Source of the DNA: Bdellovibrionales bacterium
Lineage (GTDB): Bacteria; Bdellovibrionota; Bdellovibrionia; Bdellovibrionales; JAUICD01
Length of the DNA: 64,000 nt
Assembly (NCBI GenBank): GCA_965262715.1
Contig: OZ253553.1
Coordinates: 320,001 to 384,000 of the forward strand
Direction of reading: 5' to 3'
Below the pieces are notes generated by a model, which did no database searches, had not been told where the DNA came from, and saw only the letters and a list, made by a program, of their open reading frames with translations. The stretch's first letter is position 1, and every line of letters begins with the position of its first letter. Shown one piece after another: positions 9,634 to 60,593 of this stretch. Position numbers and translations under genes: made by a program.

Positions 9634-11595
9634 CTATCTCTTTTGCTTTATGTTCTGTTTATTTGATGTTGTTGGTGAATCTTTTTTTTTTGATTTTTTT
9701 TCTGTGTGAACTGAATCCATAATTGGATCATCAGATGAAGGATTAGAGAGAGTAGGCTCCTTTTCCTTACTTGAATCTTCTATTATCTTACCTTCTGTGG
9801 CAACTTGTTTTATCTCTGAGATATCACCTGGAGCAGGCAGGTCTTTATTTGCGCTTTTAGTAGAGTCGCTGAGATTTTGAGATGACTTTGTTTGTGTATC
9901 TGTATTGATCTTAATATCTTCACTTGAATCTTCTATTATCTTACCTTCTGTGGCAACTTGTTTTATCTCTGAGATATCACCTGGAGCAGGCAGGTCTTTA
10001 TTTGCGCTTTTAGTAGAGTCGCTGAGATTTTGAGATGACTTTGTTTGTGTATCTGTATTGATCTTAATATCTTCACTTGAATCTTCTATTATTTTATCTT
10101 CTGTGGCAACTTGTTTTATCTCTGAGATACCTGGAGCAGGTAGGTTTTTATTTGCGCTTTTAGTAGAGTCGCTGGGATCTTGAGATGACTTTGTTTGTGT
10201 ATCTGTATTGATCTTAATATCTTCTTCTTTTTTCTCTTCTGTTTGTTGATCATTGACTTGCTTTTTAGTTTGTGATGTTGGAGCGGTACTTTCGCTTGCA
10301 TCTTGCGTTTTTGTAGCAAGTGATGGGATCTGCTTATCCTTATATTCTTCAATAAATGCCTTAGATTCACCAATGAGCTTGAGGGCTTTGTTTTTATCCT
10401 CATAACCAGGAATGGCCATAACTTCCTCTGCTGTGGCTTCTGCTAAGGATTTAATAGAGCTAAAATTGCTTTGATAAATATTTTGAGCCATTGTATCTGA
10501 GATATTTTCAAGGAGAGAAAGGTTGAAGATAGCCTCTGCTTGCCTTTTTGCGACATCAGATTCAGAAACAATTTTCATCTGCCATCCTGTGAGCTTTGTG
10601 GCTAAGCGAACATTTTGACCTTTTTTACCTATAGCTAAGCTAAGTTGTGCATCTGGTACGACAATCTCCATTTCTTTATTTTCTTCATTGATAAAAACTC
10701 TTGCCACTTCAGAAGGTTGAATGGCGTTGCAGACAAAGTTAATAATGTCCTCTTTGAAAGGAACAATGTCTATTTTTTCTCCTTGTAATTCCTGTACTAC
10801 GTTTTGTACACGACTTCCTTTCATGCCCACACAGGCACCTACAGGGTCAACAGCATTATCTTTAGAAACAACAGCTATTTTAGCGCGAGAACCTGGTTCT
10901 CTAGCTGCTGCCACAATCTTTACAATTCCATCATGAACTTCTGGAACTTCAATCTCAAACAGCTTGATCATATATTTCTCGTCTGTTCGTGACATAATGA
11001 TTTGTGGGCCTCTCCCTGTCTGCTTGACATCTAAAATATAACCTTGAACACGATCTCCAGGTTTATAGATTTCTCCAGGGATCTGCTCACTTTGAGGTAA
11101 ATAGGCTTCTGTTCGTCCTAGATCAACCACAATAGTTCTGTATTCCACTCTTCTTACAATCCCAGAAGCAATTTCTCCTCTTCGTTTTTCAAATTCTTGA
11201 AAGATGATTTCATGTTCTGCATCACGTACTTTTTGCATAATGATTTGCTTAGCTGTCTGAACAGCTACTCTTCCTAAATCTGATGAGTCCATTTTAATCC
11301 CAATATAGTCACCAATTTTGCATTCAGGGTCTAATTCTTTAGCTTCTGCAAGCTTGATTTCTACCTCTTCATCCACAAAGGTTTCGGGGTCTACGACTTC
11401 CTTGAATTGATGCAATTCAATTTCACTGGAATCTTCATTATAACTAGATTCAATCTCCTTATAAGTTCCATATTTTTTTCGAGCAGCCAGCAACATCCCT
11501 TGAACAATAGCATCAATAACAATTTGTTTTTGGATGCCTTTATCCCTTACTATGGTCTCAATCAATTTGTCTAAGCTAGAAAATTCGGCACCCAT
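9634..11595 (-). CDS. nusA: Transcription termination factor NusA with repetitive C-terminal extension
   Basis: AREPGSRAKIAV, GACVGMKGSRV, LSLAIGKKGQNVRLA. Confidence 0.98.
   Translation of the reverse strand: MGAEFSSLDKLIETIVRDKGIQKQIVIDAIVQGMLLAARKKYGTYKEIESSYNEDSSEIELHQFKEVVDPETFVDEEVEIKLAEAKELDPECKIGDYIGIKMDSSDLGRVAVQTAKQIIMQKVRDAEHEIIFQEFEKRRGEIASGIVRRVEYRTIVVDLGRTEAYLPQSEQIPGEIYKPGDRVQGYILDVKQTGRGPQIIMSRTDEKYMIKLFEIEVPEVHDGIVKIVAAAREPGSRAKIAVVSKDNAVDPVGACVGMKGSRVQNVVQELQGEKIDIVPFKEDIINFVCNAIQPSEVARVFINEENKEMEIVVPDAQLSLAIGKKGQNVRLATKLTGWQMKIVSESDVAKRQAEAIFNLSLLENISDTMAQNIYQSNFSSIKSLAEATAEEVMAIPGYEDKNKALKLIGESKAFIEEYKDKQIPSLATKTQDASESTAPTSQTKKQVNDQQTEEKKEEDIKINTDTQTKSSQDPSDSTKSANKNLPAPGISEIKQVATEDKIIEDSSEDIKINTDTQTKSSQNLSDSTKSANKDLPAPGDISEIKQVATEGKIIEDSSEDIKINTDTQTKSSQNLSDSTKSANKDLPAPGDISEIKQVATEGKIIEDSSKEKEPTLSNPSSDDPIMDSVHTEKKSKKKDSPTTSNKQNIKQKR
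9768..10224 (-). repeat. Three near-identical in-frame tandem repeats (150-153 bp) within nusA
   Basis: TGTATTGATCTTAATATC recurs at 9901, 10054 and 10204; unit EDIKINTDTQTKSSQ...KIIEDSS. Confidence 0.95.
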
Positions 11596-17310: not shown

Positions 17311-18128
17311 TTTTCCTTAACATTGTGTTAAAGAATGAGGGTAGTCTCCTCCTAAAAATAGACAGATTTTTTAGGCAATGATCATTTTACGAGGACGTTA
17401 GTCGTCGTGATCATTGCCAAAAAACAGCCAGAGGTGTGGAAGTATATTGTTTTTTAGAAAAACAAGGAAAAATCTTGAAGGAGCTGAAAATTGATATTTT
17501 AAGCTAAGTCTCGAAGTCCTCGATGAGATCGCCAAAAAGCGATCTCATCTGCGGAAGATCTCGTCTTTAGCTTAAAACATCAAATCTTAATTCCTATGAT
17601 AAAGATTATAGGTGATTTGTAAGGAGAAGAGACGGTAAGAGGAAGTTTTCCTTAACATTGTGTTAAAGAATGAGGGTAGTCTCCTTACTAAAAATAGACA
17701 GATTTTTTAGGCAATGATCATTTTACGAGGACGTTAGTCGTCGTGATCATTGCCAAAAAGCAGCCAGAGGTGTGGAAGTATATTGTTTTTTAGAAAAACA
17801 AGGAAAAATCTTGAAGGAGCTGAAAATTGATATTTTAAGCTAAGTCTCGAAGTCCTCGATGAGATCGCCAAAAAGCGATCTCATCTGCGGAAGATCTCGT
17901 CTTTAGCTTAAAACATCAAATCTTAATTCCTATGATAAAGATTATAGGTGATTTGTAAGGAGAAGAGACGGTAAGAGGAAGTTTTCCTTAACATTGTGTT
18001 AAAGAATGAGGGTAGTCTCCTTACTAAAAATGAACAGGTTTTTGAGGCAGTTAGCATTTTCTTGAAGGCGTGAGCCTTCAGGCTAACTGCCCAAAAGTGG
18101 CCAGAGGCCAGTTCATTTTTAGGGAAAC
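17311..18128 (+). repeat. Head-to-tail array X-Y-X-Y-X of structured non-coding modules
   Basis: Unit starts TTTTCCTTAACATTGTGTTAAAGAA at 17311, 17646 and 17982 (period 335/336 bp); the first two units are almost identical, the third X has a different but compensated hairpin. Confidence 0.95.
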
Positions 18129-18204
18129 AGCATTTGACAAATTTATAAAGCTATCGTGAAATAAATATATAAATATATAAATATATAAATATAGGGGGAA
18201 ATAA

Positions 18205-27940: not shown

Positions 27941-28276
27941 TGTTTTTTTAGAAAAAACAAGGAAAAAATCTTTAGAAGCTTTGGTTTGATGCATAAGTTA
28001 AGTCCTCGAGCTATCGCTTGGATAGCGATAGCTCTGCGGAAGACCTCGTCCTTTAACTTATACATCAAACTTTATTTGCCATGAAAAGATTTAGTGTGAT
28101 TTGTAAGAAGAAGAGATAGTAGTAGGAGGATTTCCTTAACATCATGTTAAAAACCGAAGAGAGTCTCCCTACTAAAATGCCTCCTACTTTCTAGGCAGTT
28201 AGCTACCTGCTGAAGGCGTGAGCCTTCAGGCTAACTGCCAGAAAGTCGCCAGAGGCGAGAGGCATTTTAGTGAAAC
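27941..28276 (+). repeat. Structured repeat modules Y-X
   Basis: TTTTAGAAAAAACAAGGAAAAAATCTT...AGTCCTCGA...TCTGCGGAAGA...GTGATTTGTAAGAAGAAGAGA, then TTCCTTAACATCATGTTAA...CCAGAGG...TTTTAGTGAAAC. Confidence 0.9.
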
Positions 28277-36457: not shown

Positions 36458-36653
36458 GCTTAACGCTATATATCATTAAAACTTCCGTTGTGTAAGATGG
36501 CAAACTTTTTGAGAAAAAACTGTAAAAACCACCATTAAAACAGTACAGTTACTAAATCTGTACATACTAACTGCTTGCTTGTTGTAAGCCTTCTGTCGTG
36601 AATAAATTAAAGGTGAGCTAACAAACTGCCAGTGACAATTCTTAGTCTAATGC

Positions 36654-38001
36654 GGCCTTGTTGCACAAAGATTTAAATAGTTTTTATTTTATTTATTTTT
36701 TAAGTAAGATTGTCATTTAATATTTTTTTATCAAGCTGAAAGAGAAGAAGGCACAATCATCTGATTAAGGATTTTACATTTAATAAACACTTCATTTGCT
36801 TGACGATGAAATTCTCTAGAAGATAATTTATCACCTAATAAAGTTTTAAATCTATACATAGCTGTTTCTGATATAGACCTCCTGTGATATTTATGTTTTT
36901 TTTTCCACTTCTTTCTACCCATCTTCTTGATTTCTCTAATATAAGTATCTCTAAGAAGCGGCGATCCCCGACAATTTCCATGCCTCTTAATCACAGCATT
37001 CTTTCTAGGTGGAGCAACCAATTTTATACTTCTATCACTTGTAAACTGATAACAATTCTTACAGTCATAAGCCCCATCAACTGAAACTTGGCCTATCTCA
37101 TCTTCATATCCTGTCAATAACTCTTCAAAAACCTCATTATCCTTTACAGAATTATCACTTAAAACAGATGCCTTAATCTGGGAATTTGACTCATCTACCG
37201 CTAAATGTAGCTTCTTCCAGGTCCTTCTCTTAGAATACCCATGCTGACGGACTTTCCACTCTCCCTCCCCATAAACTTTAAGACCTGTGGAATCAATGAC
37301 AATATGAGGATTCTTGTGAGAAGATAGCTTTCTTTCTAGTTTTACTGATAACTTCTGTAATCTTCTGCAAAGAGTTGTATAATTAGGTATTTCTATATCA
37401 AGACACATAAGTTCAACTAGGGATTTAGCAAAACCTTCTGTAGATCGCAATTTTAAACCAAATATGAATCTTAATATATTAAGAGTTTCAATAGCTTTAT
37501 CAGAGTAAACTTGTTGACCCCCTTGCTTTGAAGAACATTTTGCATACCAAGATTTGACGATATCTGCTGAAAACCAAAAAGTGATTTGACCTCTATTGAC
37601 TAGAGACTTATTATAAAGACTCCAGTTTATTTTTTTATTTTTACCCATCTCTAGCTCCTTCTGATTTAGTGATTGTGAAAGTTGGGGATGGGTAAATTTT
37701 ATAATCACTAAAAACAAAAAATCAAAGTAATAGATATCAAACTCAGAAAAAATAGAGCTTAGGCAAAAAACTTCATATATGGTGCATAATAAACATCTGT
37801 AGGAGAATTATGGCAGGCTTCTGAAATAGGACTAGGCCAGTGCCTTAGGAGAAAAATATCTATAAAGCATTCGATACTATAATAAAATCTTAAAATAATA
37901 GCAATAAAAGGTACAGAGGCCCTCTAAGGCCTATGGAAGATGCCTGACTTAATTCTCTAACTTGTATACACATATTCCATAAATCTTTGTGCAACAAGAC
38001 C
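36654..38001 (-). mobile_element. IS5-family (IS903-like) insertion sequence, 1348 bp
   Basis: 22-bp TIR GG(C/T)CTTGTTGCACAAAGATTTA; 9-bp TSD GTCTAATGC at 36645-36653 and 38002-38010. Confidence 0.95.
36731..37648 (-). CDS. IS5-family DDE transposase
   Basis: NWSLYNKSLVNRG, IDSTGLKVYGEGEW, RRTWKKLHLAVD, DGAYD, YHRRSISETAMYRFK. Confidence 0.97.
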   Translation of the reverse strand: MGKNKKINWSLYNKSLVNRGQITFWFSADIVKSWYAKCSSKQGGQQVYSDKAIETLNILRFIFGLKLRSTEGFAKSLVELMCLDIEIPNYTTLCRRLQKLSVKLERKLSSHKNPHIVIDSTGLKVYGEGEWKVRQHGYSKRRTWKKLHLAVDESNSQIKASVLSDNSVKDNEVFEELLTGYEDEIGQVSVDGAYDCKNCYQFTSDRSIKLVAPPRKNAVIKRHGNCRGSPLLRDTYIREIKKMGRKKWKKKHKYHRRSISETAMYRFKTLLGDKLSSREFHRQANEVFIKCKILNQMIVPSSLSA

Positions 38002-39452: not shown

Positions 39453-40181
39453 TAATAATAAAGAATGTGTATAATGAAGCAATTATTTTATTTATCTTTA
39501 TTGACAATTTTATTTTTGGCTTATGATGTATCTGCATTTCAAAGCTTGGATGAACAATCTAAAAATTGTACTTTTAGTCATTATTCAGATATTACTGGTA
39601 TCGAAGTAGTGGATCTTGGTGATAGACAAATATATACTTTATCTACAGAGCATCTTGTTAATGAAAGGGAGATCATTTTTGCAGCTTTCTCAAATCCTAC
39701 TTCCTCAATGCATTTTTCAATGATGCTCGATGAGATCATTAAAAATAATCAGGCAGTGATTGAATCTGAACAATCCGATGTTCAAAAAATAGTAGAATTG
39801 TTTAGATCAGAGCAAATAGATTGGATAGGTTTAGAGACTTCTCCAGAGCAGTTAGAGGTTAATCCTATCGATGTTCGGATTAGAGGTTATTTTGAAAACA
39901 AAGATTTTTTAAACACAAACTTGAATCGCACAGATGGGTGGAACTCAAATAAAACAGAAAAAATACTTTCCCTTATTTATAACCCTTATATTATAGCCCT
40001 TGCAGGTAATCTTAATCTTTTTAATGGAGTTGAAATAATTCCTTTGGATAGTTATGACTTAAGAGGAGCTGAAGCGCAATATTATAATGATATAGATCAT
40101 GATATGAACCTTCTAAGAACTTATCATGTCCGTGTAGGCATCAATCAATCGGTGGTCACAAGTTTTTCACATTTCATAAAA

Positions 40182-41508
40182 GGTGGATTCAAGTCGTAAG
40201 TGCAACACTCCTTGCCTAGTTGTTTAAAGGTGGTTAGAGGAATACTCTAATCAATACCTTTACATAACGAGAGGAGTATTCCATGAGTAAATACACTCAT
40301 CTAACCCAAAGTGACAGATACCAGATTTTAGCACTTTTGCAAAGTGGAAAATCAATAAGTTCAATTGCTACGCAGCTAGGTCGAGATAAAAGCACGATAT
40401 ATAGGGAGCTGAGTCGTAACAAAGGTTTGCGAGGTTATCGTGCTCAACAAGCCCATGAAAAAGCAGTCGATCGTCTTCAAGACTCTCATAGACATATAAA
40501 GATAACACAAAAAGTCATTAATAAGCTTGAGAGGTTTCTTTGTGAACGTTGGAGTCCGGAACAAATATCCGGTTTTCTTAAAACAAAAGGTTTTTCTATA
40601 AGTCATGAGAGTATTTATCAACATATTCTGCGAGATAAGAAATCAGGAGGTGATCTCTACAAATTTTTAAGATGTCAGAAGAAACGCAAGAAGCGATATG
40701 GTACAAGTAGGTTTGATAAAAGGGGTCAGATACAGAATAGAGTGAGTATTGATAAAAGACCTAAGATAGTAGATAAGAGGATTCGCATAGGAGACTGGGA
40801 AGGTGATTTAATGATAGGTAGACATCATAAAGGAGCTTTAGTCACACTGGTAGATAGATGTTCTAAGAAGACGAGGATTGTCAAAATAGAATCTAAGAGT
40901 TCTGAGGCAGTATTTCATGCTATTTCTAAAACTCTTAAAAGAGAGGTTGTTCATACAATGACTTTGGATAATGGTAAAGAGTTTTCGTGTCATGAGAAGA
41001 TCAGTGAATATACCGGATGTAAAGTTTATTTTGCACATCCTTACAGTTCATATCAGAGGGGTTTAAATGAGAACACGAATGGTTTAATCCGTCAGTATTT
41101 TCCAAAGAAGACAGACTTTAGAGAAATCACCTCTAAGGATGTAAAAAAGGTTGAGTTTCTTTTAAATCACCGCCCTCGAAAGAGTTTAGGTTTTCTAACT
41201 CCCAATGAGTTTCATAGACAGAAGATGATTTGTTGAAATCATTATCAATTCAAAATTACTTATCCTATATAACAGCTTTTTGTAAGTAAAAATTGATGTT
41301 TATAGTAAAGGCAAGTTTTTCCGCAGAGCTTTAGCTCGAGGACTACTTGCCTTTACTATAAACATCAAAGTATATCTCTTCAAATAAAATAATTTACTGT
41401 AATCTTTCACTATAATTAAAACTTTGTTGGAATATTAATCTTAAAATGATATAACTTTTAAAAATATCTATAACCGCAAAAGTGTTGCACTTGCGATTTG
41501 AAGTTACA
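40182..41508 (+). mobile_element. IS30-family insertion sequence, 1327 bp
   Basis: Imperfect 27-bp TIR (GGTGGATTCAAGTCGTAAGTGCAACAC / GTGTTGCACTTGCGATTTGAAGTTACA); 3-bp TSD AAA. Confidence 0.95.
40283..41236 (+). CDS. IS30-family transposase
   Basis: HTH RDKSTIYREL, WSPEQI, GDWEGD, DNGKEF, RGLNENTNGLIRQYFPK. Confidence 0.98.
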   Translation: MSKYTHLTQSDRYQILALLQSGKSISSIATQLGRDKSTIYRELSRNKGLRGYRAQQAHEKAVDRLQDSHRHIKITQKVINKLERFLCERWSPEQISGFLKTKGFSISHESIYQHILRDKKSGGDLYKFLRCQKKRKKRYGTSRFDKRGQIQNRVSIDKRPKIVDKRIRIGDWEGDLMIGRHHKGALVTLVDRCSKKTRIVKIESKSSEAVFHAISKTLKREVVHTMTLDNGKEFSCHEKISEYTGCKVYFAHPYSSYQRGLNENTNGLIRQYFPKKTDFREITSKDVKKVEFLLNHRPRKSLGFLTPNEFHRQKMIC

Positions 41509-42011
41509 AAATCTAAAACGAATAGATTTGAATTTCTCACAATTTCATCTAACGAACTTGAAGAGTTTTTAGATAAGCTTAGAGTTGAAGATAATACTCG
41601 AATTTATATGAGAATGATCGTAGAGAAAACCAATGAGGCAACAAATATATCTCGAGAGCGAGATCAAAATGTTGTTGCATCTATTCTAAATCAACATGGA
41701 AATGGCTTAGTGCTCTTTGGAGCAGCTCATGGACCAGGTATTAAGCAAGGCTTAACAGCAGCTTGTCAGAATAATTTATGAAAAGTTAAGAGTTCATGCT
41801 GTCAAATTTTTAGACGGTTAATTGTCAACTTTATAACCATTATCTTTTTTAAAGGACCTTTAAACTGTTTATCTTTAAGAGCTACTGTCATAATTTGAGG
41901 TGTTTTTTTAATTTATTTGTATAAGTATGAGCCATTTACAACTCTTTTTTTGATAAAATGTTTTAGTTCTAGGCAAACTCTACCGAAGTTTTATAAGGGA
42001 GAGGCGTCTAT

Positions 42012-45021: not shown

Positions 45022-45456
45022 TTAATTTGATAGACAAGAGTCCCATTGAGCTTCTAAGTCTTCCAGTTCTTCTCTCATATTGTTAATGTCTTCTAGTGTT
45101 GTGTTCTGTTTTTTCTCTTCCATCCATGCTGAGAATTCTGTTAAGTTTTGGTTTGATGTTATCGATTTATTTTGTATATATTCTCCTGGATAAAGGTTCA
45201 TTAAAAATCTTTCTAGGTCCATCTCTAAAAGAACATCGAAAAACTCAGACATAAGTTGTCCTAGTGGTGTGTCTTGGAGTAAGTTATATGTAGCTTCTTG
45301 ACAATCAAGATTGTCATTTATAATGACCCTAGAGGATACGAAATGAGTTATATCTCGAAGAAGTTCACTTAAGGGGTCTTCTCTTTGAAAAGAAGCATTT
45401 GTAGTAGCTGCTATTATAGATAGCAATAAAAAGATTGATAGGTATAATGAGTTCAT
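45022..45456 (-). CDS. Secreted hypothetical protein (tandem paralog 1)
   Basis: Signal peptide; ATYNLL.DT.LGQ.MSEFF and MREELEDLEAQWDSCL shared with its neighbour. Confidence 0.8.
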   Translation of the reverse strand: MNSLYLSIFLLLSIIAATTNASFQREDPLSELLRDITHFVSSRVIINDNLDCQEATYNLLQDTPLGQLMSEFFDVLLEMDLERFLMNLYPGEYIQNKSITSNQNLTEFSAWMEEKKQNTTLEDINNMREELEDLEAQWDSCLSN

Positions 45457-45475
45457 GTTTTTTTCTCTTTCTGGG

Positions 45476-45925
45476 TTAAGGGAATGTGGTTTGTAGGCAA
45501 GAGTCCCATTGAGCTTCTAAGTCTTCCAGTTCTTCTCTCATAGTGTTAATATCTTCTGGTGTTGTGCTTTGTCTTTTCTGTTCCATCCATAGAAGAGTAC
45601 CTAATAAGTTTTGTCTTGACTGTCTTGTTTTATCTATTTCATGTTCTTCTGAATACTGATTTAGTAGGTAAGCTCTGAGATTCATTTCTAAATGAATCTC
45701 AAAAAATTCAGACATGATCTGGCCTAGTTGTGTATCTTCAAGTAGGTTATATGTAGCTCTTTGGCAATTAGGATTGTTATTTATTATAACTTCAAAGTAT
45801 ATAAAACGGGTGATATCTTGGAAAAGCTGGTTTAGTGGGTCTCCTTCTTGAGAGAAGCTAGTTGTAGGACTTGTTATTATGCATAATAATAACAAAATTG
45901 ATAGGTAATAGCTTAATAGTTTCAT
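45476..45925 (-). CDS. Secreted hypothetical protein (tandem paralog 2)
   Basis: Same shared motifs as 45022-45456. Confidence 0.8.
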   Translation of the reverse strand: MKLLSYYLSILLLLCIITSPTTSFSQEGDPLNQLFQDITRFIYFEVIINNNPNCQRATYNLLEDTQLGQIMSEFFEIHLEMNLRAYLLNQYSEEHEIDKTRQSRQNLLGTLLWMEQKRQSTTPEDINTMREELEDLEAQWDSCLQTTFP

Positions 45926-48506: not shown

Positions 48507-49400
48507 TTTCACTAAAGAGGCTTCTGTTTCCCTAAAAATAGACCTGCCTCTGGCAGTTTTTGGGCAGTCAGCCTGAAGACTTACGTCTTCAAGAAAATGC
48601 TAACTGCCTCAAAAATTTGTCTATTTTTAGGAGGGAGACTACCCTCGTTCTTTAACACGATGTTAAGGAAAACTTTTTATTCACTAAAAATAAACCAGCG
48701 TCTGTTTCACTAAAAATGAACCAGCCTCTCGAGGCGAGCCTCTGGCAGTTTTTGGGCAGTTAGCCTGAAGACTTACGTCTTCAAGAAAATGCTAACTGCC
48801 TCAAAAATTTGTCTATTTTTAGGAGGGAGACTACCCTCGTTCTTTAACACGATGTTAAGGAAATCGCTGACTACTTTATCCCTAGTTCCTCTTACTATCT
48901 CTTCCTCTCCTTACAAATCACACCAAATCTTTAGCAAGATAAGAGTGGATATTTATGGCAAAAAGACAAGTTCTTCCGCAGATGGGATCGCTAAAAAGAG
49001 ATCCCATCGAGGACTACTTGGCTTTGCCATAAATATCCAGTCATTGCCCCAAAGATTTTTTCCTTGTTTTTCTAAAAAACAATCCATCTCCTAACTCTGG
49101 CGACTTTCTGGCATTGCCCTCAAACTGGCTCACGCCGTTTGGCAAATAGGGCAATGCCTAGAAAGCATGAGGCATTGTAGTAAACCAGATATCTCTCGTT
49201 ATTTAACATAATGTTAAGGAAATCATTCTCTTGCTATCTTCTCTTCTTACAAAGCCTAGAGAGGATAATACATTTTAGTAGGGAGATACTTTTTATCTAT
49301 TAACATAATGTTAAGGAAACTGTCTTACTTACTTCTTTCATTAAAATGCATCTGACCTCTAGAGGCTCGCCTCGAGAGGCTAGTTTATTTTTAAGAGAGA
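48507..49400 (-). repeat. Cluster of structured modules (read on minus strand: partial X, X, Y, X, X)
   Basis: X at 48526-48672 and 48704-48863 (near-identical), Y at about 48870-49085, X at 49094-49222, fragments to 49400. Confidence 0.92.
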
Positions 49401-57673: not shown

Positions 57674-57933
57674 ACTTACCTTAATGTAATGATCTAGAGT
57701 TATGGCAGGCTTCTTTCATAAGCAAGTAGGCAACCCCCATGCCTTGTATTGCTGTTACTTTGTGATTTTCTTATGGAATAAAACATTTTATAAAAGTTTT
57801 GTCTCCTAAGGCATTGGCCTAGTCCTATTCCAGAAGCCTGCCATAAATCTCTAGCACACAAACTAAAGTTGATCTTTATGCAACAAGCCCTCTCAATATT
57901 GCAAAATGCAAAGCTTATTTTTGAGACCACTTC
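57647..57933. mobile_element. MITE family W containing an IS903-like end and module Z
   Basis: TGGTCTCAAAAATA ... TATTTTTGAGACCACTTC|TA; IS903-like TIR GATCTTTATGCAACAAGCCC at 57871-57890. Confidence 0.7.
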
Positions 57934-58599: not shown

Positions 58600-58913
58600 G
58601 GTGGATTCAAGTTGCAAGTGCAACTCCTTGCATAGTTATTTAAAGCGGGTTAGAGGAATACTCTAATCAATCTCTTTAAATAATGAAAGGAGTATTCCAT
58701 GAGCAATTACACTCATCTAACCCAACATGAGAGATACCAGATTTTAGCTTTTTTGCAAAGTGGAAAATCAATAAGTTCAATTGCTACTCAGGTAGGTCGA
58801 GATAAAAGCACCATATATAGGGAATTGAATCGTAACAAAGGCTTGCGAGGTTATCGTCCTCAACAAGCCCATGAAAAAGCGGTTTATCGTCTTCAAAACT
58901 CTCATAGACATAT
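58600..58913 (+). mobile_element. IS30 5' fragment (left end plus truncated transposase)
   Basis: Left TIR at 58600; ORF from 58699 matches the transposase until cut at 58913 by a second IS30. Confidence 0.92.
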
Positions 58914-60248
58914 GGTGGATTCAAGTCGTAAGTGCAACTCCTTGCATAGTTGTTTAAAGCGGGTTAGAGGAATACTCTAGTCCATACGCTTTAAACACAG
59001 AAAGGAGTATTCCATGAGCTACACTCATCTAACCCAACATGAGAGATACCAGATTTTAGCTTTTTGCAAAGTGGAAAATCAATAAGTTCAATTGCTACTC
59101 AGGTAGGTCGAGATAAAAGCACCATATATAGGGAATTGAATCGCAACAAAGGTTTGCGAGGTTATCGTCCTCAACAAGCCCATGAAAAAGCAGTCGATCG
59201 TCTTCAAAACTCTCATAGACATATAAAGATAACACAAAAAGTCATTAATAAGCTTGAGAGGTTTCTTCGTGATCGTTTGAGTCCGGAACAGATATCCGGT
59301 TTTCTTAAACGAAAAGGTTTGTCTATAAGTCATGAGAGTATTTATCAGCATATTCTTGGAGATAAGCAATCAGGAGGAGATCTCTACAAATTTTTAAGAT
59401 GTCAGAGGCAACGGAAGAAGCGATATGGTACAAGTAGATTTGATAAAAGGGGTCAGATAAAGAATAGAGTGAGCATTGATAAAAGGCCTAAGATAGTAGA
59501 TAAGAAGAGTCGGATAGGAGACTGGGAAGGTGATCTAATGATAGGTAGACATCATAAAGGAGCTTTAGTCACGCTGGTAGATAGATGTTCTAAGAAGACG
59601 AGGATTGTCAAAATAGAATCTAAGAGATATGAGGCAGTTTTTCATGCTATTTCTAAAGCTCTTAAAGGAGAGGTTGTTCATACAATGACTTTGGATAATG
59701 GTAAAGAGTTTTCGTGTCATGAGAAGATCAGTGAATATACTGGATGTAAAGTTTATTTTGCACATCCTTACAGTTCATATCAGAGAGGTTTAAATGAGAA
59801 CACGAATGGTTTAATCCGTCAGTATTTTCCAAAGAAGACAGATTTTAGAGAAATCGCCTCTAAGGATGTAAAAAAGGTTGAGTTTTTTTTAAACCATCGC
59901 CCTCGAAAGAGTTTAGGTTTTCTAACTCCTAATGAGTTTCATAGACAAAAGATGGTTTGCTGAAGTTATTCATAGTTTATCCATTTAATTTTACTTATAT
60001 ATAATAACTTCTGAAAATGCTTATTTGACAGCTTGATGTTTATGGCAAAGGATCGTTCTTCCGCAGAGCTTTAGCTCGAAGACTACGAGACTTTGCCATA
60101 AACATCAAAATACATTCATTCAAATTAAATAATTTACAATAATCTTTCATGATAATTAAAACTTTGTTGAAATATTAATCTTAAAATGATACAACTTTTA
60201 AAAATATCTATAAACATAAAAGAGTTGCACTTGTGATTTGAAGTTACG
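58914..60248 (+). mobile_element. IS30 full-length copy with frameshifted transposase
   Basis: Both TIRs present; ATG at 59014 runs out of frame at a T5 run (T6 in the 58699 copy); main frame 59064-59963. Confidence 0.92.
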
Positions 60249-60348
60249 AAATAATAAATAGAAGTTATCTCAAAAATAAGTTTTGTATTTTGCTTTTGCG
60301 AGTTAAAATAGTGATCTGGAAATCCGGCAAGTAAGTTGTCATGAACCA

Positions 60349-60593
60349 TCCTATATAACAGTTTTTAGTAAGTAAATCTTGATACTTATGGCAAAGGATC
60401 GTTCTTCCGCAGAGCTTTAGCTCGAGGACTACGAGACTTTGCCATAAATATCAAAATACACCATTCAAATAAAATAATTTACAATAATCTTTCATGATAA
60501 TTAAAACTTTGTTGGAATATTAATTCTAAAATGATACAACTTGTAAAAATATCTATAAACACAAAAGTGTTGCACTTGCGATTTGAAGTTACG
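60349..60593 (+). mobile_element. IS30 right-end fragment
   Basis: Matches 41262-41508 including the Y hairpin and right TIR; preceded by a W-MITE end (60260) and TAAGTTGTCATGAACC, the end of the 592-1134 MITE family. Confidence 0.88.

Follow-up and report, generated by a model that had tools for sequence, protein, structure and literature searches.

An IS30-borne hairpin in a Bdellovibrionales genome belongs to a dispersed chromosomal repeat with likeness to plasmid and phage priming signals

The hairpin Y, found in the 3' non-coding tail of an IS30-family element, is a dispersed chromosomal hairpin repeat with an invariant centre and with arms that vary among copies yet remain paired. As judged from sequence comparison, Y may be built on a priming signal of the primosome-assembly type (ssi/n'-pas) and carried by IS30 as a passenger; we give this chain as a whole a probability of roughly 45%. 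A motif matching the invariant centre is found next to plasmid origins and, in single-stranded DNA phages, on the packaged strand; the centre is therefore likely to be a signal in folded DNA for the start of synthesis rather than an RNA. In the proposed mechanism, the core strand, when single-stranded or extruded, would be bound by host restart proteins (PriA, with DciA as helicase loader), and synthesis would be primed there. Y would then have been captured into the 3' end of IS30 and carried along.

The window, the whole stretch of 64,000 nucleotides that was analysed, belongs to a genome of 2.94 Mb and 33.6% GC (G000). It contains the following parts of the carrier element:

40182..41508, plus strand: IS30-family element, copy A, 1327 bp, one of 24 full-length copies in the genome
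40182..40209, plus strand: left inverted repeat of copy A, from sequence
40283..41236, plus strand: IS30 transposase of copy A, 317 aa (HTH_38 and rve), from the ORF and a domain match
41237..41480, plus strand: 3' non-coding tail of copy A, likely acquired, found by blastn only in IS30 copies and fragments
41293..41368, plus strand: Y hairpin of copy A, with 24-bp arms around the core and without the flanks of the free 200-bp Y unit
41319..41344, plus strand: invariant core TTCCGCAG...CGAGGACT of copy A, a CC-GCA-G / C-GA-GG internal loop with a short apical stem
41481..41508, plus strand: right inverted repeat of copy A, ending about 270 nt past the stop codon
58600..58913, plus strand: IS30 left-end fragment, directly 5' of copy B
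58914..60248, plus strand: IS30 copy B, with a frameshift near the 5' end (ORF 59064-59963)
60033..60108, plus strand: Y hairpin of copy B, with one core change, CGAAGACT
60348..60593, plus strand: IS30 right-end fragment of 246 bp, not a whole IS
60379..60454, plus strand: Y hairpin of the right-end fragment

The carrier, which we take to be a member of the IS30 family, as did the first-pass annotation, has 28-bp imperfect inverted repeats and a transposase that is 41-58% identical to those of 80 IS30-family loci. Its 24 full-length copies are dispersed in G000, all start GGT/TGT-GGATTC and finish GAAGTTAC-R, and all contain the tail and the hairpin. The pieces at 58600-60593 are nested (left fragment, full copy B, right fragment), and the right fragment begins at a 16-bp sequence (60332-60347) that recurs inverted at 592-607 and is possibly the end of another IS. 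Solo right ends of 25-130 bp are numerous in contig C1 of G000 (36 sites), where they outnumber solo left ends and show no orientation bias to the next gene (18:18). A degenerate copy at G000:C1:1052262-1053217 has the whole tail deleted, with 3-4 nt of microhomology, and a scan of the G000 tail for an outward promoter found none. Elsewhere in the window, an IS5-type (DDE_Tnp_1) transposase lies at 36731-37717 with terminal repeats near 36633 and 38022, and 54 bp of its leader are found again, in inverted orientation, at 57798-57851. Three tandem repeats of 150-153 bp occupy 9764-10219 in the 3' part of nusA (653 aa), and two tandem paralogous ORFs of 144 and 149 aa, with no Pfam match, lie at 45022-45925.

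The first-pass annotation placed a Y hairpin at each of the three IS30 right ends, and all three are present. Folded as DNA, they score z = -10.6 (41293-41368), -10.0 (60033-60108) and -6.9 (60379-60454), with 0/200 shuffles as stable. The same annotation described the core in free modules with other stems, and these were found as well, together with a neighbouring repeat, X:

17488..17585, minus strand: free Y hairpin in a tandem X-Y array behind a tRNA gene
17824..17921, minus strand: free Y hairpin, second unit of the array, with a 336-bp period
27982..28070, minus strand: free Y hairpin
48944..49043, plus strand: free Y hairpin in an X-Y array
17979..18130, minus strand: neighbouring 150-bp X repeat in the same orientation as Y, with 445 profile hits in the genome
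48524..48675, plus strand: neighbouring X repeat

The core of these free modules lies at 17515-17556, 17851-17892 and 28001-28041 on the minus strand and at 48974-49015 on the plus strand, and both the inner and the outer stems are unlike those of the IS30 hairpins. Against shuffles, the IS-borne and free hairpins of the window range from z = -6.9 to -11.7, and an alignment of eight Y sequences has two-sided changes at 11 of 26 consensus pairs. The stem covariation reported between IS30 copies, TATAGTAAAG/CTTTACTATA versus TATGGCAAAG/CTTTGCCATA, was likewise confirmed.

Y hairpins number 92 in a profile search of G000: IS30 tails or remnants hold 31, and 61 are free; the profile itself places 30 inside IS spans and 62 outside, and one of the 62 is an IS remnant. 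The free copies are nearly all intergenic, dispersed between genes and often located just past a gene end. Of the 62, 46 have a gene on the opposite strand as their closest 3' neighbour, and IS-borne Y lies opposite to the majority orientation of free copies. The free unit measures about 200 bp, as set by the flanks of 55 full-length free copies, of which 35 upstream and 31 downstream are distinct, and none of the IS-borne copies scores on these flanks. An X repeat (150 bp) is found within 150 nt of 41 of the 62 free copies, in the same orientation in all but one. The exact pair CCGCAG...CGAGGA is present in 38/61 free and 18/31 IS-linked copies. The apical loops of G000 are longer than those of other genomes, and both orientations occur. 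Among the Rfam 15 covariance models run across the window, only tRNAs reach a meaningful score, and Y yields miRNA-like matches far below threshold. Identity of the Y loop with a K-turn or a hairpin-ribozyme loop was rejected by eye because the registers do not pair.

Y extends well beyond this genome. Of 251 genomes of the order, 46 contain the exact core TTCCGCAG/CGAGGACT (5 control matches); most of them are without this IS30, and the arms around the core differ at every site across the order. The core is also present in about eight metagenome contigs of very different GC, and a loose core pattern run on metagenome and viral collections returned about 8 real hairpins among the 241 matches listed, the rest being mostly chance. 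A circularly permuted form of the core, of the kind seen in proteobacterial repeats, was found in 0/251 genomes. Among 201 proteobacterial genomes, the core of the relatives was found in none and their minimal tip (the core closed by GC-GAA-GC) in one. In the class of G255, 26 of 121 genomes matched the core, which equals the control level, and these matches lack stems. Literature searches on Bdellovibrio and REP, on the core motifs, and on IS30 and REP or terminators found no description of the Y repeat.

The arms of Y change faster than the transposase ORF and stay paired, also at sites without an IS, which points to arm-to-arm copying. IS30 copies A and B differ at 10 of 45 arm positions and at 56 of 954 ORF positions. 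At an orthologous non-IS site with flanks 90-92% identical, the arms and the inner stem have been replaced yet are paired, and in two genomes of genus g31 the core is inverted in place there (L424 / L425 versus L355). Divergence is not universal, since three of 15 orthologous pairs have arms that are 95-97% identical. Arm length has a median of 34 bp and a range of 4-73 among 82 distinct instances. Arms overlap gene ends by up to 30 nt and also reach into tRNA 3' ends (L362, L372). No empty Y site was found at the two loci compared, one being filled in all 5 genomes and the other having rearranged neighbours. Paired replacement of the arms appears to reflect arm-to-arm copying, and fold-back or template-switch synthesis at the hairpin would copy one arm from the other, sometimes from a neighbouring gene end. 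Such copying would explain the covariation of Y without selection on RNA, and covarying stems in repeats of this kind need not signify RNA. Pairing selection on the tail, as proposed in the first-pass annotation, is an interpretation and not an observation. The mean pairwise difference among IS30 copies is 0.069 for Y, 0.049 for the 3' tail behind Y and 0.051 for the ORF. Of the 24 full copies, 15 have an intact core and 9 a changed one, and the mid-stem is broken in 7.

The centre of Y probably works as folded single-stranded DNA. Loops and mismatches were counted in 82 distinct instances, which represent 80 loci of other genomes after three hairpin-less loci were dropped, with metagenome hits restricted to those bearing stems. 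In this sample, where kin and orthologous loci inflate the counts, 53 of 82 apical loops are C(GAA/GCA/GGA/AAA/AAC)G triloops versus 2 of their complements, and mismatches read on the core strand are GT 68, AG 35, GG 10 and AA 4 versus AC 21, TT 8, CT 6 and CC 0. The G000 copies have the same mismatch bias. One account (PMC3201870) describes DNA triloops of the d(GNA) type with a C:G closing pair as very stable and cites loops with sheared A:A and A:C pairs. The bias holds whether the flanking genes are on the core strand, on the other strand or divergent (73 instances). Because it follows the core strand and ignores the direction of transcription, it argues for DNA rather than RNA as the form that is read. 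The core strand is the leading-strand template in 40/62 copies of G000, where the skew is noisy and gene orientation may account for the bias, and in 20/31 copies of genus g31 by local skew, the opposite of what routine exposure of the lagging strand would give. The RNA contigs of four runs on the locus of a relative (L412) carry no information on transcript ends or strand.

One IS30 lineage very probably picked up Y as a passenger, as suggested by comparison with its relatives. Y is present in 0 of the 80 related IS30-family loci, and among 8 further IS30 loci from relatives it was found only in a remnant of the same element in G004, a genome of another genus whose remnant has the same tail as the G000 IS30. 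Among 49 distinct relatives, the right inverted repeat was detected in 41 and lies at most 33 nt from the stop codon in 38. The remaining three calls comprise one that is spurious and two with tails of 274 and 287 nt, the hairpins of which are unrelated to Y. In a tree based on 73 columns, a small number that gives rough support, IS-borne Y falls in two places among free Y, with 2 label changes. Four IS30 copies with damaged cores are near-identical (3-10 columns apart), occupy different sites and have intact 317-aa ORFs. Since damaged-core copies kept transposing, IS30 appears to need no intact Y core in cis. For IS30 biology the outcome is modest, namely a captured passenger.

Long tails also occur in two other IS30 lineages (L039:1100-1390; L049:1960-2250; L053:905-1190). 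These tails of 270-290 nt contain a long hairpin with bulges, the stem of which has matches to the DnaA box (8/9 in L039, exact in the other two), and an outward sigma70-like promoter between the hairpin and the right inverted repeat. Their hairpins were not found free in their own genomes, and a second sample of 30 IS30 loci contained no convincing long tail.

The link to priming signals comes from plasmid replicons. The pattern CCGCAG-N2..40-CGAGGA has 5 matches in 108,115 bases of ColE1, F, ColE9-J, R100 and phiX174, all beside replicons, ColE1 having been chosen for its resemblance to Y. The reversed pattern has 0 matches, and simulation gives a mean of 0.37 and a maximum of 2 in 60 runs. 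The sites lie just past the ColE1 origin region (1316), on both sides of F repE and upstream of F repB (48036, 49610 and 38122), and 118 nt after the ColE9-J rep gene (6641), and they share a GCTCG (before) / AGC (after) context. All five are presumably tested n'-pas. Y and the plasmids share 12 nt, divided over two blocks. The plasmid sites are missed by profiles made from Y, and the Y hairpin of the window has no plasmid match above chance. For all five sites the predicted best fold is another pairing, 0.6-5.6 kcal/mol below the Y-like loop in an energy model without sheared-pair terms. The two-block motif is absent from the phiX174 pas region, M13, the Bdellovibrio microvirus phiMH2K and 44 kb of R100. 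The ssiA/n'-pas signal is described as lying downstream of the ColE1 origin and as a single-stranded, PriA-recruiting motif (PMC3167613), and pas is described as a hairpin (PMC5778457). PriA is encoded in G000 and DciA in 5/5 genomes; DnaT was found in 0/5.

The minimal tip of the relatives extends the likeness to phages. It matches 992 plasmid records over 18-23 nt (E 0.6-7, with much redundancy among the records) as well as 85 Ralstonia phage records, in non-coding contexts that include an IncFII replicon, about 790 nt beyond its repA, a repeat of 300 bp in an IncN plasmid and an intergenic region of the inovirus RSM3. The exact 18-nt tip occurs in 58 IMG/VR stretches (49 distinct contexts) versus 3 for the reversed control. 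Scanning 65 of 120 flanking ORFs gave 28 loci with inovirus, microvirus or circular-virus Rep markers, and the tip is on the marker-gene strand in 28/28 of these ssDNA-virus loci (25 distinct contexts), a count that concerns the GC-GAA-GC-capped tip of the relatives and not the Y form of G000. In phages of the inovirus and microvirus type, the gene strand is the packaged strand. A viral scan with a variable tip gave 1 hairpin in 120, which is at chance level.

Several related structures were seen during these searches. In two actinomycete plasmids (L476:1470-1550; L477:1470-1550), the tip sits inside long variable arms, an architecture like that of Y. A near match to the core in phiX174 (L474:890-906) lies inside gene J on the viral strand, away from the known pas. 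A three-hairpin element with the same tip is common to IncFII and IncN plasmids and enterobacterial inoviruses (L469, L471, L475, L487, L488, L503, L507, L509, L518, L520, L526, L532) and is a candidate unannotated ssi; F has a truncated relative of it at 40779-40837 (E 6e-9). Large, probably tailed phage contigs (L479, L490, L498, L501, L502, L515, L529, L530) contain several tips per intergenic multi-hairpin module. Two candidates for the motif were set aside. F ssiE resembles the plasmid and inovirus element by eye (PMC11541004) but is without the tip, and the family profile matched another F site; in Frpo sequences, CCGCAG is perfectly paired.

Other readings of Y can be weighed against these data. 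Y could be a REP-like substrate of some single-strand transposase or nuclease, with a GCA/GA loop and a GNA cap that are simply stable DNA motifs on which many ssDNA signals draw; the matches in plasmids and phages would then be convergent, and IS30 would again carry a passenger. This reading, which we regard as somewhat unlikely, draws on the resemblance of the mosaic, one-orientation X-Y arrays to BIMEs, on an ssDNA signature that suits any ssDNA-binding enzyme, and on the failure of profiles to join Y to the plasmid sites. However, G000 has just one clear Y1 gene, an IS200-type tnpA that has ends of its own and no Y, and G004 has Y and no Y1 hit. The RAYT-like genes of four Y-rich genomes have other flanking repeats, with no Y within 1.5 kb in 20/20 loci, and Y copies persist at orthologous sites across species. 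The search identified no mobilising enzyme for Y. Bdellovibrio-like genomes (L441-L460) have 4-16 RAYT-like Y1 matches each, and several of these genes are framed by inverted repeats of 17-50 bp that start AAAAGGTACC or AAGGTGCC and are unrelated to Y. It is improbable that Y is a host RNA terminator or 3'-end stabiliser at gene ends, retained by IS30 to insulate the transposase transcript. The position of free copies past gene ends and their opposite 3'-side genes would suit this role, and two other IS30 lineages also have a long hairpin past the stop codon; but a pattern scan of 40150-41560 found no T run of the intrinsic-terminator type, the core flips at one site, the loop and mismatch bias is indifferent to transcription, and IS-borne Y runs against the majority orientation. 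Moreover, termination does not need an invariant internal loop, and the loop remains invariant in the wider alignment, contrary to the generic terminator considered in the first-pass annotation.

Two further readings assign Y a role in IS30 itself. An IS30-specific RNA (regulator or guide) encoded by the tail under pairing selection, the first suggestion of the first-pass annotation, is very improbable, even though the tail and hairpin are kept in 24/24 full copies, the same tail recurs in another genus, and ISPpu9 of the IS110 family has a small RNA downstream of its transposase (PMC8450116). Against it stand the lack of Y in IS30 relatives with a right inverted repeat close to the stop codon, the 61 free copies, the presence of Y in genomes without this IS, arms that are paired outside the IS, the placement of IS-borne Y among free Y in the tree, the bias that follows the core strand, and the absence of any Rfam family besides tRNA with a meaningful score in the window. 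Furthermore, Y is not better conserved than the tail, and damaged copies spread. The other suggestion of that annotation, a captured and functional protein-binding hairpin, fits: the hairpin was probably captured, and its loop is conserved and probably read by a protein. It is also quite improbable that IS30 keeps Y because, on the sense strand displaced in copy-out, Y would prime the second strand of the circle. The Y core strand is indeed the IS30 sense strand, and a DnaA-dependent class of ssi exists, which the DnaA-box hairpins in the tails of the two other long-tailed lineages recall. Yet damaged cores did not stop recent spread, and tails occur in just three lineages.

The preferred reading, a chromosomal repeat on a primosome-assembly-type signal with IS30 as carrier, also has a more far-reaching form, which we consider unlikely. 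Y would be a selfish or domesticated repeat on a phage or plasmid primosome hairpin, the self-copied arms of which extrude and recruit PriA, and origin-independent priming would rewrite the arms and spread Y without a transposase. IS30 elements would more than once have gained ssi hairpins (Y, and the DnaA-box hairpins in two lineages) that prime the second strand of copy-out circles. If the preferred reading is true, PriA sites defined by sequence, familiar from plasmids and phages, would occur in chromosomes as dispersed repeats, and about 140 distinct natural Y variants would show what the protein reads in a host with DciA in which DnaT was not found. The match to plasmid and ssDNA-phage priming hairpins gives the function of Y a concrete and cheap test.

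Comparison with known systems places Y between several families. Like REP, BIME and REPIN sequences with their RAYT enzymes, Y is an intergenic imperfect palindrome with a conserved mismatch, mosaic arrays and an ssDNA signature. Unlike REP, Y has no constant GTAG/GGAG at its foot, the opposite strand reading GTAG, GAAG or ACAG by copy; it has no adjacent RAYT, and its arms are locus-specific. In contrast to the targets of REP-targeting IS, Y lies inside IS30, a family absent from those listed as REP-targeting in one account (PMC1525189). MITE-like repeats (Correia, ERIC, RUP, RPE and YPAL) are described as similar in being multicopy, 100-200 bp long and folded into a long stem-loop (PMC2229807), whereas in Y the centre is conserved rather than the termini, and no terminal repeats are common with an IS. 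The carrier is like other IS30 elements in its DDE transposase with an N-terminal HTH and in its 28-bp imperfect inverted repeats, and unlike them in the distance of about 270 nt from stop codon to right end.

Closer parallels are found among priming hairpins. The complementary-strand origin hairpins of inoviruses and microviruses (ssi/sso; PMC5714925, as far as described there) compare with Y through the minimal tip, which is identical over 17 nt to the form of the relatives, lies on the gene strand, is mostly intergenic and is often placed just 5' of a nick-site-like hairpin. Their stems are shorter than those of Y, and the fetched phage records annotate no function at the tip. ColE1-class n'-pas/ssiA are described as short one-strand ssDNA hairpins (PMC3167613; PMC5778457), and at the sites next to the ColE1, F (RepFIA and RepFIB) and ColE9-J replicons, as in Y, the blocks CCGCAG and CGAGGA enclose an inner stem that varies. 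The plasmid sites have GCTCG/AGC flanks, whereas Y has AGTT or ATCTT/TTCTT before the core and CT after it, and full-length homology including the flanks fails. Y also differs in its long perfect arms and in being chromosomal and multicopy in hosts where DnaT was not found. Rather than lying beside a replication origin on the displaced strand, it is dispersed, with a strand bias that runs the other way. By analogy, Y would work most like a ColE1-class ssi/n'-pas but is not classed as a member, and what is new here is the link between the Y loop and the priming hairpins of plasmid replicons and ssDNA phages.
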